DNA from: Minisyncoccota bacterium
Lineage (GTDB): Bacteria > Patescibacteriota > Minisyncoccia > Phycocordibacterales > JAQTLZ01
Reading direction: 5' to 3'
Assembly (NCBI GenBank): GCA_028714635.1
Contig: JAQTLZ010000001.1
Coordinates: 79,650-143,649, forward strand
Length of the DNA: 64,000 bases
This document shows positions 32,883 through 39,934 of this stretch, one piece after another. Both the position numbers and the translations under genes were made by a program. Below the pieces are notes generated by a model that ran no database searches, was not told the origin of the DNA, and saw only the letters and a program-made list of their open reading frames with translations. How positions within the stretch are numbered: position 1 is the stretch's first letter; the number at the start of each line of letters is the position of its first letter.

Positions 32883-33347
32883 CTATATTCGAAATCTGGG
32901 GAACTTATCGGTGGGGAGGGGAAGGCTACAAGAGACTTCTCCTCCGATCATATCCTTTCCGAGTTCCTGCGCAATTTCTTTCAAGGATTGATTGGTCGCA
33001 TCATCTTGATCAAGAAAGAGAAGATATGCCCAGAGGCCTCGGCAGATTTTTTCTTCTGCATGTCTTTCGAAAATGAAGATGATGTCGTCCTCTTCCGATC
33101 TCTCTTTTAGGCAAAACCAGAACCTCTTTCCTTCGAGCTTGCCTATTACTACCCAAGCGCGGGCACGGCGCCCCTTTTCAGTCTTAAATGCTCCGGCCAA
33201 TTCCCCTGTCTTATGATCCAGGTTGATTCTCGCATTCCATTTTCCTCCCAATCGATTGGGAGGGCTAACATCAAAAGTTCCGCTCAAAAACACCTGTCCT
33301 TTTGCGTCCTTTCGCAGATTGACCCACGGCGCCGTTCTCTCTTCCAT
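32883..33347 (-). CDS. Hypothetical protein (GC-rich, strong SD), upstream partner of the XRE regulator
   Basis: 154 aa with no motif. GGGAGGAATCGCAC lies before the ATG. Confidence 0.45.
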   Translation of the reverse strand: MEERTAPWVNLRKDAKGQVFLSGTFDVSPPNRLGGKWNARINLDHKTGELAGAFKTEKGRRARAWVVIGKLEGKRFWFCLKERSEEDDIIFIFERHAEEKICRGLWAYLLFLDQDDATNQSLKEIAQELGKDMIGGEVSCSLPLPTDKFPRFRI

Positions 33348-33442
33348 GTGCGATTCCTCCCAATGGTTGTCTCGAATGATGTCAAATCTCTTTATAATTT
33401 ATCACATATTCAAAACGCGAAAAAACGTGGTAAGATTTTTAA

Positions 33443-34069
33443 ATGGTCGTCAAGTATAGTATTGGAATTGATGAGGTGGGACGGGGGCCTTTGGCGGGGC
33501 CGGTAACTTTGTGCGCAGTTATGGTGGAGAAGGGGGCAGCGAAAAATTTCTCGGAAATTTTTCGCGGGGTCCGGGATTCAAAACAGCTTACCGAAAAGGT
33601 GCGTGAAAAGTGGTCAAAAATCGCAAAATCAGAAAAAGAAAAAGGTGCCATCCAATTTTCGATTTCATCAGTTCAAAATTTTACGATAGACAAAATTGGA
33701 CTCGCGCGCGCCGTACGGCGCGCGCTCAAAAACTGCTTGAAAAAACTCGAAGTAATTCCGAGCGAATGCGAAATTTTTTTAGACGGCTCGCTTTACGCTC
33801 CCAAAGAATTTAAAAATCAGAAAACAATTATCGGAGGCGATTCGAAAGTAAAAATCATTTCTCTTGCATCTGTTATCGCTAAAGTTCATCGCGATAGAAA
33901 AATGGCTCGACTTTCAAAAAAATATCCCGGTTACGGCTTTGAAATCCACAAAGGCTATGGCACCAAACTTCACTATAAAAGTCTTAAAAAATGGGGCGTT
34001 TCGGAGATTCATCGCAAGAGTTTTCTCCACTCCTTACCCACAGCATCCCCACAAGTTATCCACAGCTAA
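33443..34069 (+). CDS. rnhB: Ribonuclease HII
   Basis: IGIDEVGRGPLAGPV is the RNase HII DEDD N-terminal signature. Confidence 0.9.
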   Translation: MVVKYSIGIDEVGRGPLAGPVTLCAVMVEKGAAKNFSEIFRGVRDSKQLTEKVREKWSKIAKSEKEKGAIQFSISSVQNFTIDKIGLARAVRRALKNCLKKLEVIPSECEIFLDGSLYAPKEFKNQKTIIGGDSKVKIISLASVIAKVHRDRKMARLSKKYPGYGFEIHKGYGTKLHYKSLKKWGVSEIHRKSFLHSLPTASPQVIHS

Positions 34070-34158
34070 CTGTGGAAAAGAGAGTAAAATAGATATCAGC
34101 AACATTGTGCAGTTAAATTGGAGTTTTTCCATTCACACTCTCGAAGGAGGGAACGGCC

Positions 34159-34374
34159 ATGACAAGCTCGATTCTCAATCCACAAGTGGGTGATGTGGAT
34201 CCAAAAGTAGGGAAATCAGATTGGGATTTCGGTGGAACATCGGAACGGCCTGCAGCTGTTGAGCTGCTTCAGATTCTTGGAAGGATGAGTAGCGTTGATC
34301 GCTCCGAATTCTTCTCAAAGAGGGCTGCAAAGCTGTTTCGTCATCGTTTCGATGTCCCGTCCGCTTGCAAATAG
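34159..34374 (+). CDS. Hypothetical small protein (strong SD)
   Basis: 71 aa. AAGGAGGGAACGGCC lies before the ATG. A CCCUCC...GGGGGG stem followed by a U7 run lies downstream (34395-34430). Confidence 0.4.
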   Translation: MTSSILNPQVGDVDPKVGKSDWDFGGTSERPAAVELLQILGRMSSVDRSEFFSKRAAKLFRHRFDVPSACK

Positions 34375-34471
34375 CTCCATTCAACTCCGTTCGCATTGTG
34401 CTCCCTCCTTTCTCACCGGGGGGACACTTTTTTTGAATTTTTCCGCTCTTGCGGATTTTTTGGTTTTACTC

Positions 34472-34480
34472 TGGTATAAT
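34472..34480 (+). promoter_or_regulatory. Extended -10 promoter TGgTATAAT
   Basis: ctggtataatt lies about 75 nt upstream of ATG 34553. Confidence 0.45.
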
Positions 34481-34552
34481 TAAAAGGGTAAGTTCCTTGT
34501 GAACAGGGAACAGGTCTCGTGGGCGCGAATGCGCAGAAAGGAGGATAGTGTC

Positions 34553-35008
34553 ATGGCTTTTGAGCAACAGCTAGTTGAGGCCACTCTTGCCGGTCTCAAA
34601 GGCGGGATGCTTCATTGGCAAACGCTGGGCTACTCCGAAGTCAGGGGTATAATCAAGAACTTGTCTCTCAGCGCAGGAGTAATTCAGGTGGATTTGTTGG
34701 AGGATCCTTTGACGGTTATACACGTCAAGGATAGGTTGGAGAGGCCGCTTTGCGGGGGTGAGCTCTCGCTTTGCAGAATTGTCACTAGTGAACCAACTTG
34801 CACAGGGGAGGAGAAAAATGGAGTGTTCAAGTTTGAGTGGCAGGATGAAGATCGGCGGTTTGTTGTCACACTCACTCCGCCGGAGAAGCCCAAGGACGAG
34901 AAGAAAGGTGAAAAGAAAGAGGGGGTTGCGACAGCGGCGAGCAAGCCCGCCTCCGAAAGTCCTTCTCAGCCATTTCGTTCTCCGCAGAGACCAAAGTCCC
35001 GCGCGTAA
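34553..35008 (+). CDS. Hypothetical protein (GC-rich, strong SD)
   Basis: 151 aa. AAAGGAGGATAGTGTC lies before the ATG. About 52% GC. Lys/Glu/Pro-rich C-terminal tail. The ORF-track start at 34499 is an extension. Confidence 0.45.
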   Translation: MAFEQQLVEATLAGLKGGMLHWQTLGYSEVRGIIKNLSLSAGVIQVDLLEDPLTVIHVKDRLERPLCGGELSLCRIVTSEPTCTGEEKNGVFKFEWQDEDRRFVVTLTPPEKPKDEKKGEKKEGVATAASKPASESPSQPFRSPQRPKSRA

Positions 35009-35107
35009 AGTGTCCTAAAAGCCCTCCCTCAACAAGATTGTTCGGGAGGGCTTCACGCATCTCTTAAGTGTTGTGTTTTTCTGTAAATTGAGTATACTGT
35101 TCGGAAT

Positions 35108-35329
35108 ATGGTAGTACGAATGCGACATACACGTGCTCATACAGGAAACAGGCGCTCACATCATGCGCTCGTTTCGATGCGTGTATCGAAGTGCCCAGAT
35201 TGCGGCGCAATGCGTATGAATCACACCATGTGCACCAATTGCGGCAAATATAAAGGCCGGGTGGTTATCGATGTTTTGGCAAAAATTGCCAAGAAAGAAA
35301 AGAAAGCAAAAACTGCCGCTAAAAGATAG
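35108..35329 (+). CDS. rpmF: Ribosomal protein bL32
   Basis: RHTRAHTGNRRSHHAL...C.DCG..R..H..C..CGKYKGR is L32 with its zinc ribbon. Confidence 0.85.
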   Translation: MVVRMRHTRAHTGNRRSHHALVSMRVSKCPDCGAMRMNHTMCTNCGKYKGRVVIDVLAKIAKKEKKAKTAAKR

Positions 35330-35397
35330 TTTTTCGAGGTAGTTTTTGAGTTTTGTTTCGTGTTTTGAGGGAGAAGTTCTTAGCTAATAAGCTATAA

Positions 35398-36300
35398 ATG
35401 GCCAATAGGCACCTTTCCAGAAGTATAGTGATGCAGTCCATGTTTGAAATGGATTTCAGAGGACTTCCTGCCTCTGATGCATCTGCCGTGCTCGAAAGAA
35501 ATGCCGAAGAGTTTGCCCCTGGGATGGGAGATTTTTCATTTATGAAATCTCTCACTCAGCATATTCTCGAAAAGAAAAAAGATATTGACGCGATTATTGA
35601 AAAAGCGGCGCCGGACTGGCCGATAGATAAAATTTCAATCGTAGATAGAAATATTCTCCGCATCGGACTTTACGAACTTCTTTTTTCAGATCGCGGAGAA
35701 GTGCCGGCAAAAGTTGCTATCAATGAATCGATCGAGCTTGCAAAAACATTCGGCGGAGAGACATCGGGCAAATTTGTAAACGGAGTCTTGGGCGCAGTTT
35801 ATAAAGAACTTGGTGAGCCGGGTAAAGACGAAACGTCAAAGAAGAAAAAAGACGAGGTGCCGGATGACAAAGCGCCCATTGAAAAGCTTGGCGGAGCAGT
35901 CGTCTATATGAAAAAGGGGAACCAGATGTATCTCGCTTTTGTCCACGATATTTTCAAACACTGGACGCTTTCGAAAGGTAAACTTGAATCGGGTGAGGAC
36001 GATGAAAAAGCAACTTGTCGAGAGATAAAAGAAGAAATGGGAGTCGATATTGATATCAAACAAAAACTTGGCGAGAATTCCTACATTACCTACAACAAAG
36101 AAAAGAAAAAGATTAGAAAATCAGTTGTTTATTTTCTCGCAGAATGCACTTCTCCGTTTGAAACTTTGAAATTGCAGAAACTTGGCGGGTTGGATGATGC
36201 AAAATGGTTTCCTCTTGAAAAAATCGGCGAGCTCACGCTCTACGATGATCTCGTTCCTATTATCACCAAAGCAGTGAATATCTTATTGAAGGCAAAATAA
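35398..36300 (+). CDS. NusB-like antitermination domain fused to a C-terminal NUDIX hydrolase domain
   Basis: N-terminus [19 protein letters not shown]...[10 protein letters not shown] is a NusB/RsmB-N pattern. C-terminus [23 protein letters not shown] fits the Nudix box Gx5Ex7REUxEExGU exactly. Confidence 0.7.
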
Positions 36301-36304
36301 TTCT

Positions 36305-36991
36305 ATGGATTTAGGCGTTTTTGAAAAAAAAATTGGAGTAACATTTCAAAACAAAGAGCTTCTCAAACAAGCTTTTATTCATCGTTCCTATTTGAATGAA
36401 AATCGCTCTCTTAAAATGGCTCACAACGAACGACTGGAATTTTTGGGTGACGCAGTGCTTGAGCTTATCGTGACCGAATATCTTTATCACAAATATCCCG
36501 ACAATCAAGAAGGCGATCTTACTTCCTATCGAGCATCTCTTGTGAACGCAGTGACGCTTTCTGGCGTTGCAGAGTCCCTAGGTTTCAACGATTATCTTCT
36601 TCTTTCGAAAGGCGAAGCGAGAGATACCGGCCGAGCGCGACAATCAATCTTGGCAGATACCATGGAATCTGTGATCGGAGCAATTTATATTGACCAAGGA
36701 TACGAAGTAGCAAAACAATTTATCTCAGAAAATATTTTCGGTCTCATTGATTCGATTGTCGCGCAAGGTGCCTGGATCGATGCAAAAAGCCGTTTTCAGG
36801 AATTGGCACAAGAAAAAACAGGAGTCACGCCTGCGTATAAAACCATCCGAGAATCAGGACCAGATCACGATAAACATTTTCTCATCGGTGTCTATCTCAA
36901 TGAAGCATGCCTCGCTGAAGGAGAGGGGAAGTCAAAGCAAGAAGCTGAGCAAAAAGCGGCTGAAGGAGCACTCAAGACCAGCGGATGGTAA
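36305..36991 (+). CDS. rnc: Ribonuclease III
   Basis: ERLEFLGDAVLELIVTEYLY is the RNase III signature. dsRBD at the C-terminus. Confidence 0.9.
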   Translation: MDLGVFEKKIGVTFQNKELLKQAFIHRSYLNENRSLKMAHNERLEFLGDAVLELIVTEYLYHKYPDNQEGDLTSYRASLVNAVTLSGVAESLGFNDYLLLSKGEARDTGRARQSILADTMESVIGAIYIDQGYEVAKQFISENIFGLIDSIVAQGAWIDAKSRFQELAQEKTGVTPAYKTIRESGPDHDKHFLIGVYLNEACLAEGEGKSKQEAEQKAAEGALKTSGW

Positions 36992-37108
36992 GGTAGAGTT
37001 GAAGTAACCTTCAACTCGACACTTATCCAGCGACCTTCTTCAGAAGGGAGTCGGATAAAATAAAAATGACCGAGTCGCGCGCGAGCACGAAACGGTCAAT
37101 GTGAATCC

Positions 37109-37534
37109 TCAAAGCGGTTGAAAATATGCCGCGTTGACGTAAGAGGAATTCTCGCCGGAGTCGCGGAAATCCTTCCCGTCTTTGTTTGCGATGAGGAAAC
37201 ATTGCTCTCTTCCTTTTCCAGTCGCAAATAAGACTTTGTACGGAGGCGGTCCAATCTCGGCGAGAATCGCCGACTGCACAGGCTCGACTGTCCTCTCCAT
37301 TATTCTTGAGATGGAAGCGAGCTCCGGGCTCCAATCCACCAACCTGACGACAACTTCTCCGGGCGATTCCTCTTCCGGCGGTACAATTCGAAGAAGAGGT
37401 TGCTCGTGTTTCTGACTTTGAGCTTTTTGAGTTAAGCCGATGCCGACGGCTTTCCTCTGACCTTTTCCGCGAACGCGCTTTTCTTTAGCCACTCCTTTTT
37501 TAGAGGAGCAGCTCCGATCCGTGACTGTACTCAT
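37109..37534 (-). CDS. Hypothetical basic protein (GC-rich) preceded by a G10 tract
   Basis: 141 aa with a Lys/Arg-rich N-terminus. On the minus strand the start region reads GGGGGGGGGGAACAATG. About 52% GC. Confidence 0.45.
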   Translation of the reverse strand: MSTVTDRSCSSKKGVAKEKRVRGKGQRKAVGIGLTQKAQSQKHEQPLLRIVPPEEESPGEVVVRLVDWSPELASISRIMERTVEPVQSAILAEIGPPPYKVLFATGKGREQCFLIANKDGKDFRDSGENSSYVNAAYFQPL

Positions 37535-37538
37535 TGTT

Positions 37539-37548
37539 CCCCCCCCCC
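37539..37548. repeat. Homopolymeric C10 (G10 on the coding strand) tract 4 nt upstream of a start codon
   Basis: Counted directly: ten consecutive C at 37539-37548. Confidence 0.9.
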
Positions 37549-37666
37549 TTGTAACCCAAGAACTCCAATTTCCCGTCTATCATTAGATACTTTTTTCTGT
37601 TTTTGTCAATCTACTCTCGGTATAACTTGTTTTGAAACACAGTAAAAAAATGCTACATTTATAGCC

Positions 37667-39934
37667 ATGTATTTAAAATCGCTTGAGATTTCTGGCTTTA
37701 AATCTTTCGGGAAGAAAAGCACGCTGGATTTCAATTCACCGATTGCCTCTATTGTGGGTCCCAACGGCTCTGGAAAATCAAACATCGCCGAAGCGTTTCG
37801 GTTTGTTTTGGGCGAGCAGTCTATCAAATCAATGCGAGGCAAGCGCGGGGAAGACCTCATTTTTAACGGCACAAAAGAAGCCGGGCGACAGAATCGCGCT
37901 AGCGTAAAAGTGGTTTTTGATAATCGGAAACGTGTTTTGGATATTGATTTTGACGATGTTTCGATCGAGCGCGTAGTTCATCGAGATGGGGTGAATGAAT
38001 ACCTCATCAATGGTTCAGCTGTGCGCCTCAGAGATATTATTGAGATTTTAGCGAAAGCGCATATCGGCTCATCTGGCCACCACATCATTTCCCAAGGCGA
38101 AGCGGACAGGATTTTGAACGCAAATTTAAAGGAACGTCGCGAGATGGTTGAGGATGCGCTTGGACTTAAAATTTATCAATACAAACGAGCAGAAAGCGAG
38201 CGGAAACTCGAAAAGACAGAAGAAAATATTAAATCAGTTGAGTCGCTTCGCCGAGAAATCACTCCGCATCTCACTTTTTTGAAAAAGCAGGTTGAGAAGG
38301 TTGAGAAAGCGCTGGTGATGAAAGATGAGCTCACGAATCTGTATCTCGAATATTTCAAACGAGAAGATGCATATTTGAAACATGAAAAAAAGACTTTGGG
38401 AGATGCAAAGCGTGGCCCGACTGAAGCTCTCGCAAAACTCGAACGCGAGCTTGGATCTGCAAAGGCTGTACTTTCTGAATCTGGTACTAAAGACAAGAAA
38501 AGCAATGAGTTGGTATCTCTTGAAGGAAAGATCCGGATTGTCCGGGAAAATCTGGATGTTCTTTCCCGTTCGCTCGGACGACTTGAAGGAAATATTTCTG
38601 CGGAAGAAAGGCGTAGAGAGAAAGCTAAACACGCGCTTGGAAATGCTGATGAGAAATTGGTGCATCTCAAAGATGTCGAAGATTTGAGTAAAAAAATTGA
38701 TGAAACTTTGCGTGAGGCAGAGGGAAGTGAAGATCTGTCAAAGGTGCGAGGAATTTTGAAAAGTATCCGAGATATTTTCGCTCGATTTATTTCAGACAAA
38801 AAACAAGGAGGTGCGCCGAAAGAAATTGAAGATGCCGAGGCTGAATTAACACGGCTGAATTCTGAAAAGAAGGGCATCGAAGTAGAGATCGAAAAAGACA
38901 AAAAGGAAGAAGCGGGGTATCACAAAGCTTACGAAACGCTCAAAAATGACATTGAAAAGGAAAAAGATTCGAGCCGGGATGCCGAGAAAGCGATTTTCAA
39001 GATCATGGCCGAGCAGAATCAGATTCATGGGGAACTCAGCGTACTTAAGGTGCGGGAAGAACTGTATCATCATGATGAAGAAGATTTTAAGCGTGAACTT
39101 GGGGAAGCGGGGCATCTTGTGGGGCGGGCAATTGTTGAGTACGAAAATTTCAAAATAGAGGGAGAGGTGCTTGAGACTGAAAGATCTGGACAACAAGAAC
39201 GTCGAAAGAGAATTGAAAAAATTAAAGTACGTCTGGAAGACGCAGGAGGAGGCGGAGCAGATGATATTATGAAAGAATTTCGTGAAGTATCCGAGCGCGA
39301 AGCTTTTTTGACCCGTGAGCTCGAAGATCTTAAAAAGTCCTCTGCATCGCTTGAAATTCTCATTAAAGAGCTTGAACAGCGTCTTGATATTGAATTCAAA
39401 GAGGGAGTCTTAAAAATTAACAAGCAATTCCAGGAATTTTTCGCGCTTATGTTTGGAGGTGGAACGGCAGCGCTTGAGGTGGTTCGAGAAGTGAAGAGAA
39501 AGAAAGCTTTGACGGATTTAGATTTGGAAGGAATGGATGAAGTGCCAGAAGAAATGGGCGATCCTGAAGAGGAAGGAAAAGAAGGAATTGATATTTCCGT
39601 AACCCTTCCGCACAAGAAAGTGAAAGGATTGACGATGCTTTCCGGAGGCGAGCGAGCGCTTACTTCCATCGCCCTTATTTTTGCGGTCTCTCAAGTGAAT
39701 CCTCCGCCATTCATTATTCTTGACGAAACAGACGCCGCGCTCGATGAAGCAAATTCAAAAAAATACGGAGATATGATCGAAAATCTTTCGAAATATTCCC
39801 AGCTTATTCTCATCACTCACAATCGAGAGACAATGTCTCGTGCCGGAATTCTTTATGGGATCACAATGGGTTCTGACGGTATCTCAAAGCTTCTCTCTAT
39901 TGCTTTTGAAGAAGCAGCAGCTGTCGCTAAATAA
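37667..39934 (+). CDS. smc: SMC-family chromosome condensation ATPase, unusually short (755 aa) with no obvious hinge domain
   Basis: The N-terminus MYLKSLEISGFKSFGKKSTLDF...GPNGSGKSNIAEAFRFVLGEQSIKSMRG is near-identical in pattern to canonical SMC. The C-terminus LSGGERALTSIALIFA...ILDETDAALDEAN is the signature motif plus Walker B. Only ~500 aa of coiled coil lie between them. Confidence 0.7.
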   Translation: MYLKSLEISGFKSFGKKSTLDFNSPIASIVGPNGSGKSNIAEAFRFVLGEQSIKSMRGKRGEDLIFNGTKEAGRQNRASVKVVFDNRKRVLDIDFDDVSIERVVHRDGVNEYLINGSAVRLRDIIEILAKAHIGSSGHHIISQGEADRILNANLKERREMVEDALGLKIYQYKRAESERKLEKTEENIKSVESLRREITPHLTFLKKQVEKVEKALVMKDELTNLYLEYFKREDAYLKHEKKTLGDAKRGPTEALAKLERELGSAKAVLSESGTKDKKSNELVSLEGKIRIVRENLDVLSRSLGRLEGNISAEERRREKAKHALGNADEKLVHLKDVEDLSKKIDETLREAEGSEDLSKVRGILKSIRDIFARFISDKKQGGAPKEIEDAEAELTRLNSEKKGIEVEIEKDKKEEAGYHKAYETLKNDIEKEKDSSRDAEKAIFKIMAEQNQIHGELSVLKVREELYHHDEEDFKRELGEAGHLVGRAIVEYENFKIEGEVLETERSGQQERRKRIEKIKVRLEDAGGGGADDIMKEFREVSEREAFLTRELEDLKKSSASLEILIKELEQRLDIEFKEGVLKINKQFQEFFALMFGGGTAALEVVREVKRKKALTDLDLEGMDEVPEEMGDPEEEGKEGIDISVTLPHKKVKGLTMLSGGERALTSIALIFAVSQVNPPPFIILDETDAALDEANSKKYGDMIENLSKYSQLILITHNRETMSRAGILYGITMGSDGISKLLSIAFEEAAAVAK

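Follow-up and report, generated by a model that had tools for sequence, protein, structure and literature searches.

Introduction

NusB is universal and normally a single-domain protein. With ribosomal protein S10 as its partner it recognizes BoxA, an RNA element, and so nucleates the ribosomal RNA (rRNA) antitermination complex; models of rRNA antitermination rest on Escherichia coli. In the NusB-NusE-BoxA complex of Aquifex, F122 stacks on U8 of BoxA and E81 is a BoxA contact residue (PMC3177189). The Nudix fold is described from other systems. In the enzymes of Plasmodium and human, the P1-phosphate site is formed by an HWxxxK motif, and F128 of human NUDT2 functions in adenine stacking (PMC4734340). 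NUDT2, a hydrolase of diadenosine tetraphosphate (Ap4A), is further reported to trim RNA with a 5'-triphosphate (PPP-RNA) to the monophosphate form (P-RNA) (PMC8616924). Non-enzymatic proteins of this fold are also recognized (PMC5389931), and CFIm25 is presented as a non-catalytic Nudix fold within RNA-processing machinery (PMC2425470). Here we analyzed a stretch of 64,000 nucleotides from contig JAQTLZ010000001.1 of a Minisyncoccota bacterium (the window, 64 kb), in which a single gene at positions 35398 to 36300 encodes a NusB that carries a Nudix domain on a tether.

A full-text literature search found no description of a NusB-Nudix fusion, and the review of the Nudix clan (PMC5389931) is silent on NusB. 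The best explanation of the data presented below, to which we attach an even chance, is a NusB whose Nudix pocket binds a nucleoside polyphosphate at nascent rRNA and hydrolyzes this ligand in those members where the catalytic box is intact.

NusB and Nudix domains are joined in one gene

The gene and its parts are as follows, with the evidence for each in brackets.

35398..36300, + strand: nusB::nudix fusion gene, an ATG-to-TAA open reading frame (ORF) of 300 codons plus TAA (Pfam, TIGR01951)
35398..35817, + strand: NusB domain, residues 1-140, seven helices (Pfam, AlphaFold2 model, phmmer)
35818..35883, + strand: tether rich in Lys, Glu and Asp, residues 141-162, with EPGK at its start (low predicted local distance difference test score (pLDDT), conservation)
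35884..36297, + strand: Nudix-fold domain of the type that hydrolyzes Ap4A and other diadenosine polyphosphates (ApnA), residues 163-300 (domain model, Foldseek, phmmer)
35977..36045, + strand: Nudix box, residues 194-216 (regular-expression match)

The original prediction, drawn from the letters of this gene without database searches, had read a NusB-like domain in the N-terminal half and a textbook Nudix box in the C-terminal half, and both calls held up. Pfam NusB (PF01029) matched residues 7-136 at E = 2.3e-32 (112.6 bits versus a cut-off of 23.1), the NCBIfam nusB equivalog TIGR01951 was passed with 120.4 bits (cut-off 88.35), and the motif that had been quoted for this half was located at residues 87-96. 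Likewise, Pfam NUDIX (PF00293) matched residues 183-280 at E = 1.1e-11 (45.3 bits versus a cut-off of 21.1), and the quoted box corresponds to residues 194-216, which agree with the consensus GX5EX7REUXEEXGU at each specified position (G194-x5-E200-x7-R208 E209 I210 x E212 E213 x G215 V216).

An N-terminal domain of the RsmB/Sun type was ruled out. RsmB models scored far under their cut-offs (e.g., 51 bits versus 319) and covered only the NusB-like part (residues ~31-150), and no methyltransferase domain was found in the window protein by Pfam and NCBIfam profile searches. A frameshift or assembly artefact was also ruled out, since the Nudix half is joined in frame to the NusB half in 80 of 80 related genome loci; these 80 loci are the best 80 of at least 583 matching genomes and all are metagenome-assembled genomes (MAGs) of the Patescibacteria type. 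The 120 best database homologues listed share this in-frame arrangement. It is confirmed that the window gene encodes a NusB with a tethered Nudix domain and that the fusion is real.

The fusion protein is a positional orthologue of NusB

AlphaFold2, run with 42 diverse homologues, modeled the NusB half as helices at residues 2-21, 25-39, 46-58, 60-70, 81-96, 104-119 and 121-138, with a pLDDT mostly >90. By phmmer this half matched NusB of Thermotoga maritima (1tzt, E = 2.8e-19) and of Aquifex (E = 3.6e-17). Alignment placed F126, which is invariant in the family, at the position of Aquifex F122, and D83, which is at least 90% conserved, at that of Aquifex E81, where the T. maritima protein likewise has Asp. 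Y18 of E. coli NusB, located at the S10 interface, aligned with F16, also an aromatic residue and not among the reported conserved columns of the family.

Two relatives of stand-alone form (at L082 and L083; 144 and 140 amino acids (aa) in length), with 50-56% identity to the N-terminal half, lie between rpmF and rnc, as does the fusion. Fused and stand-alone NusB thus fill one and the same place in the rpmF-nusB-rnc order, which makes the fusion a NusB orthologue by position. No second NusB and no similar Nudix protein were detected in the window when all six-frame ORFs were searched by tblastn and with hidden Markov models (HMMs) of the family, and neither was found within 10 kb of the fusion in the 80 loci. 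The equivalog score, the kept contact residues and the genome position show that the window protein is a NusB, and it is probably the NusB of this organism.

The fusion is common in Patescibacteria

A word-indexed search of 5.8 billion proteins returned at least 8000 matches, and the best 120 of those examined had lengths of 283-352 aa and an identity of 64-95% to the window protein, with both Pfam domains detected in 118. All originated from Patescibacteria, Parcubacteria and Paceibacteria MAGs, and their source names, where given, were only 'transcription antitermination factor NusB' or 'N utilization substance protein B'. HMMER, run exhaustively against 1.84 billion representatives of 50%-identity clusters, recovered dozens of full-length fusion clusters, down to ~30% identity, together with many stand-alone NusB proteins of 140-150 aa that were 50-55% identical to the N-terminal half. 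When one genome per GTDB species was scanned with a profile built from the Nudix half only, the fusion was found in at least 583 species-level Patescibacteria genomes. Pfam assigned NusB to all 42 diverse members analyzed and NUDIX to 35 of them. NusB had been noted as normally a stand-alone protein of ~140 aa; by these numbers, and with the best matches named as NusB only, the fused architecture is not unusual within its clade. The Nudix domain was probably acquired in one large Patescibacteria lineage (MAGs of the Parcubacteria/Paceibacteria type). The fusion is common in Patescibacteria, yet it is undescribed and uncharacterized within the literature searched. For annotation, this means that thousands of database entries named only 'NusB' conceal a second domain.

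One orthologue, at locus L001 (Ca. Paceibacterota, STB_28), is 99% identical to the window protein and ~87-91% identical in DNA. At the other extreme, one distant family member is named '8-oxo-dGTP diphosphatase' by a single IMG source. A candidate stand-alone Nudix of 149 aa (P0236) proved to be a truncated fusion, with its start at a distance of 39 nt from the edge of a 1.8-kb contig.

The genetic code of one distant member is of separate interest. At L086:6001-6900 (GCA_054047225.1, JBPLFY010000016.1), in a genome of 25.7% guanine plus cytosine, the fusion is 30% identical to that of the window, and in-frame TGA codons occupy precisely the positions of the near-invariant W189 and W270 and, in the RNase III gene, that of the C-terminal Trp. 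TGA occurs in frame 16 times across 12 genes of this locus, compared to only 2 occurrences of TGG. Code 25, in which UGA is read as Gly, has been reported for some Patescibacteria. From the positions of these codons, UGA in L086 appears to encode Trp, its meaning in code 4, rather than Gly.

The C-terminal half is of the Ap4A/ApnA-hydrolase type

A Foldseek search with the Nudix half, which was modeled alone with a pLDDT of 94.6 and a predicted template modeling score (pTM) of 0.88, gave 578 PDB matches at E <=0.001, and all 50 listed were Nudix-family structures. The best was the Ap4A hydrolase of Aquifex (3i7u; E = 4e-12, template modeling (TM) score 0.85/0.90, root-mean-square deviation 1.8 A), followed by Chlamydia CT771, mycobacterial MutT1/Rv2985 (a diadenosine polyphosphatase), Thermus Ndx1 (a diadenosine hexaphosphate (Ap6A) hydrolase) and the human and Caenorhabditis elegans Ap4A hydrolases; the top identifiers were, in order, 3i7u, 4mpo, 5gg5, 9cxx and 1vc8. 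Structures ranked highest by phmmer were 1kt9 (E = 3.6e-8), 3i7u (1.8e-7), 4ilq and 3u53, and Dcp2 Nudix domains matched at E ~1e-6. BdRppH, Dcp2 and NudC ranked lower by fold (TM 0.61-0.67). Residues H188-W189-x3-K193 reproduce the HWxxxK motif, K241 and Y282 aligned with K83 and Y121 of the C. elegans enzyme, and the Y282 position is the one at which human NUDT2 has F128. By sequence and by predicted fold, these results show that the Nudix half is closest to the Ap4A/ApnA hydrolases.

Earlier, hydrolysis of either an Np4A-type or a nicotinamide adenine dinucleotide (NAD) cap had been suggested. The first of these is favored, as the closest structures are Ap4A/ApnA hydrolases; the NAD-cap type is disfavored, as the fold of NudC matched much more poorly (TM 0.64-0.65). 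Three assignments to named enzymes were rejected by profile scores: RppH (best model NF001936, 27 bits, E = 3.4e-6, versus a cut-off of 118), YtkD (TIGR02705, 16.7 bits versus 154.4) and NudC (NF001299, 17.7 bits versus 158).

A conserved tether links two confidently predicted domains

For the whole protein, AlphaFold2 gave a mean pLDDT of 91.9 with a pTM of 0.57, and the pLDDT fell below 50 at residues 144-150. The predicted architecture is that of two confident domains on a flexible tether. Measured from K143 to G166, the tether spans 11-41 residues, with a median of 23, and Lys makes up 23% of it. It begins with an EPGK motif that stand-alone NusB proteins do not have, and in 81 genome representatives conservation is at least 95% at E140, P141, G142, K143 and P160. 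Within the tether, three close comparisons gave 0 nonsynonymous versus 9-15 synonymous differences. Such constraint is unusually tight for a linker, with zero replacements between the window and L001 despite a prediction of disorder.

Both domains and the tether are under purifying selection

Substitutions were counted by the Nei-Gojobori method. Between the window and L001 (L001:9524-10423), 4 of 300 amino acids differ, with a synonymous divergence (dS) of ~0.5-0.7 and a ratio of nonsynonymous (dN) to synonymous divergence of ~0.01-0.03. In close comparisons dN was 0.29-0.41 in the box, compared to 0.02-0.04 in NusB, 0 in the tether and 0-0.07 in the remaining Nudix half; synonymous divergence was saturated, and dN/dS was ~0.02 outside the box. 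Judged from aligned sequences, both domains and the tether are shown to be under very strong purifying selection.

This constraint bears on whether the two parts were joined as a mere fusion of convenience, in which a house-cleaning Ap4A or nucleoside triphosphate Nudix was attached to nusB with no link to antitermination. Such an origin would fit the compact genomes of Patescibacteria, the predicted structural independence of the two domains (with the low pTM and disordered linker described above) and the 8-oxo-dGTP diphosphatase name of one distant member. A housekeeping enzyme that is catalytically dead should, however, decay or be lost, and the domain persists in all of the 80 loci; dN/dS is low in the close comparisons, the tether has no replacements despite saturated synonymous change, and the only apparent stand-alone copy checked was the fragment at a contig edge. 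We therefore consider a fusion of convenience highly improbable.

The box behaves differently from the rest of the protein in close relatives, of which it is the most variable stretch. In P0001 (95% identical), 9 of 16 amino-acid differences fall within the 23-residue box (p = 6e-7), and in P0003 (91% identical) 11 of 28 do so (p = 3e-6); among them are E200Q/K, R208K and, in P0003, E212L. By contrast, the box of the window and that of L001 differ by 5 synonymous and 0 nonsynonymous changes (dS ~0.5). The canonical box is thus maintained in the sub-lineage of the window itself and has been let go in sister lineages. Because its box is complete and is conserved in its own sub-lineage, the window protein is probably an active hydrolase.

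Catalytic residues are dispensable across the family

An intact box (G/E/RE/EE/G) was found in 62 of the 120 closest homologues listed, 42 of 81 genome representatives, 9 of 58 full-length representatives of 50% clusters and 110 of 247 non-identical full-length homologues (the merged set). Box state required an approximate minimum of 50 changes on a neighbor-joining tree, compared to 81 +/- 4 with shuffled labels; loss of the box is thus highly patchy. The commonest change was replacement of E209, the glutamate of 'RE', by K, V, I or A. At least one of three box glutamates was non-acidic in 114 of the 247 proteins and at least two in 28.

Outside these positions, the degenerate members remain well conserved. 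K193, Y229, K241, Y245, W189, W270 and Y282 are still 91-99% conserved among them, and E213 of the box is kept at 89%. By alignment, K193 and K241 would be counterparts of phosphate-contact residues, and W189 and Y282 of the HWxxxK and stacking positions. Mean conservation among the 81 genome representatives was 0.72 for the Nudix half and 0.75 for NusB, and when pairs of NusB identity >=0.6 were compared, conservation outside the box was similar in degenerate and intact members (0.65 versus 0.66; 0.60 versus 0.62). These comparisons show that, across the family, catalytic residues are dispensable and the presumptive counterparts of ligand-contact residues are not. The role under selection family-wide looks like binding rather than turnover.

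A coupling of antitermination to hydrolysis had been suggested for this protein from the outset. As a conserved function the coupling fails, given the fraction of the merged set in which the box is intact and the loss of key residues in relatives 91-95% identical; for the window protein itself, with its complete box free of replacements relative to L001, an active hydrolase remains plausible. An obligatory pyrophosphohydrolase, with decapping or 5'-end conversion of nascent RNA as the selected activity of the fusion, would be in keeping with the perfect and conserved box of the window, with rnc being co-encoded, and with nearest relatives that are Ap4A hydrolases, a group able to act on RNA 5' ends (PMC8616924). 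We judge obligatory catalysis unlikely, as most cluster representatives and over half of the merged set have lost the box, replacements at E200, R208 and E212 occur in close relatives, and constraint outside the box is similar in degenerate members at the higher NusB identities, which would be unexpected if catalysis were the point.

Dispensable catalytic residues, together with a strongly constrained tether and domain surface, would also suit a Nudix half that is purely an architectural module for protein or RNA interaction, with neither a small-molecule nor a 5'-end ligand. SuhB offers a model for such a part, as it is needed for stable integration of NusB/E and binds an RNA signal element (PMC6614801). 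We give this alternative a small but real chance. Against it, the best-conserved residues include W189, K193 and Y282, the presumptive counterparts of the phosphate-site and adenine-stacking positions of Ap4A hydrolases; E213 is largely retained even in degenerate members, and ~45% of members have a complete catalytic box.

Several points weigh against binding of a nucleoside polyphosphate at nascent rRNA, with hydrolysis where the box is intact. The arrangement of the two domains is predicted with no confidence (AlphaFold pTM as above), and the position of the Nudix domain in the antitermination complex is not indicated. BoxA binding by the window protein would follow from residue conservation alone, and the counterpart of the loop-5 Tyr is ambiguous (Y229 or Y232). 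The neighbor-joining tree is crude, which makes its number of state changes approximate. Change of E209 may lower rather than abolish activity, such that some of the 'degenerate' members may be slow enzymes. At NusB identities of 0.3-0.6, conservation outside the box was 0.34-0.36 in degenerate compared to 0.39-0.44 in intact members, and some relaxation of degenerate members is possible in these more diverged pairs.

Gene neighborhood

The genes that flank the fusion are as follows.

35108..35329, + strand: rpmF (ribosomal protein L32), upstream (PF01783; TIGR01031, 53.9 bits)
36305..36991, + strand: rnc (RNase III), 4 nt after the stop codon of the fusion (TIGR02191, 263 bits)

Both neighbors were found by Pfam and NCBIfam profiles, in agreement with the placement of the gene between rpmF and rnc in the original prediction. 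Further out, the window encodes RNase HII upstream and a short SMC downstream. This order (rnhB - rpmF - nusB::nudix - rnc - smc) is kept nearly everywhere in the 80 loci: rnc lies downstream of the fusion in every one, and rpmF was detected upstream in nearly all. The same holds for rnc in the distant members L084-L086 and downstream of stand-alone nusB, and a distant fusion of 33% identity on a 930-kb contig (P0201) has the order gyrB-dnaE-rnhB-rpmF-fusion-rnc-smc, which matches that of the window. The fusion gene and rnc are probably co-transcribed. A ribosome and RNA-processing neighborhood had also been noted; relatives with a stand-alone NusB share this gene order, and the rpmF/rnc context therefore belongs to nusB and carries no specific information on the Nudix half. 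Other genes of the window are of the ordinary housekeeping kind, namely gyrB, dnaE, pheST, thrS, def, rpsB and tsf, together with genes for a release factor with PCRF and RF-1 domains and for a ribonuclease of the RNase R/II type with an RNB domain.

Rfam models searched over the whole window detected one tRNA-Thr only, with no RNA element near the fusion gene and no rRNA operon. Promoter and terminator scans of 33300-37800 gave counts equal to the shuffled expectation. Upstream of nusB, a BoxA-core-like motif, [GT][CT]TCTTT (often GTTCTTTAA/AT), was found on the coding strand of 22 of 74 rpmF-nusB intergenic regions (L002-L080), compared to 4 on the opposite strand and 5.4 +/- 2.1 in mononucleotide shuffles, in which dinucleotide bias was uncontrolled. 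About half of the matches lie <=25 nt from the nusB start codon, and the window has a version with one mismatch, GTTCTTAGCTAAT, at 35376-35388 (+). In other bacteria, suhB has been shown to be autoregulated through BoxA, and the same is proposed of nusE and nusB (PMC5725501); by analogy, the motif upstream of nusB could serve autoregulation of this kind.

Three features of the flanking DNA stand apart from the fusion. Between rnc and smc, ~580 bp of the window (37067-37644) have no counterpart in L001, where the gap is ~120 bp; this extra DNA encodes a minus-strand ORF of 141 aa (37109..37534) with no Pfam match and may be a small insertion. Between rnhB and rpmF, positions 34027-34991 could barely be aligned with L001 DNA, although proteins of the flanking genes are 89-99% identical; the ORF in this region (34499..35008, 169 aa) has a product 33% identical to that of L001, with a tail rich in Lys, Glu and Pro and no Pfam or NCBIfam match. 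The SMC-like gene (37667-39934) is syntenic in most loci and encodes only 755 aa (700 aa in its L084 counterpart), with both halves of the ATPase head apparently present. A typical bacterial SMC has ~1,150-1,200 aa. The gene looks like a shortened coiled-coil SMC that is conserved in the lineage.

Discussion

In the mechanism that we propose, the NusB half would deliver the Nudix pocket to RNA polymerase and to nascent transcripts that carry BoxA. The ligand bound by the pocket at this site would be a nucleoside-polyphosphate group, whether the 5'-triphosphate of the nascent RNA, a dinucleoside tetraphosphate (Np4N)-type cap or free Ap4A. The window copy would probably also hydrolyze this ligand, for example by converting a 5'-triphosphate (5'-ppp) or Np4N cap to a 5'-monophosphate (5'-p) beside the co-encoded RNase III. 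A more specific proposal, which we regard as decidedly unlikely, is that the NusB-tethered Nudix acts as a reader, and in some lineages an eraser, of a 5'-ppp or Np4N rRNA end or of Ap4A, and so gates or stabilizes the antitermination complex. If this were true, rRNA synthesis and processing in minimal-genome bacteria would respond directly to nucleotide-stress signals, and the response would be tuned from transient to persistent as the domain switched, time and again, between enzyme and pseudo-enzyme.

In much of a major bacterial radiation, NusB carries a Nudix domain that is kept under very strong selection and whose catalytic residues have been lost again and again. The fusion suggests that the machinery by which Patescibacteria transcribe and process rRNA has a component that has escaped study. 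Its orthologues form a natural series of enzymes and pseudo-enzymes, some only a few residues apart, by which the question of binding versus hydrolysis is testable in vitro.

Among described systems, RppH, BdRppH (3ees), Dcp2 and NudC share with the window protein the fold and the box, and an analogous activity at RNA 5' ends is plausible; the window protein nevertheless fits none of RppH, Dcp2 and NudC, as its profile scores are below their cut-offs and its fold matches are weaker. SuhB, in the rRNA antitermination complex of E. coli, is a protein of enzyme fold that works with NusB/E on the rRNA leader (PMC6614801). It differs in being a separate polypeptide with an inositol monophosphatase fold, and a functional analogy to the fusion is speculative. 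CFIm25, a pre-mRNA 3'-processing factor, and the DBC1 family have kept Nudix folds for binding and in this resemble the degenerate-box half of the fusion family; the likeness is one of function, taken from descriptions, and in the window protein the catalytic box is complete. With the Ap4A/ApnA hydrolases (Aquifex aq_158, 3i7u; C. elegans, 1kt9/1ktg; human NUDT2, 3u53; Chlamydia CT771, 4ilq; and Thermus Ndx1, 1vc8) the Nudix half has in common the box, the HWxxxK motif, a Tyr that aligns with the stacking position and the fold, but it is only 20-27% identical to them, is fused to NusB, and has replaced catalytic residues in more than half of its orthologues. With bacterial NusB (1tzt of T. maritima, the Aquifex NusB-NusE-BoxA complex 3r2c and the E. 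coli NusB-S10 complex 3d3b) the window protein shares the fold, the U8-stacking Phe and the gene slot, and it extends this protein by ~160 C-terminal residues that are absent from the matched solved NusB chains of 139-156 aa.

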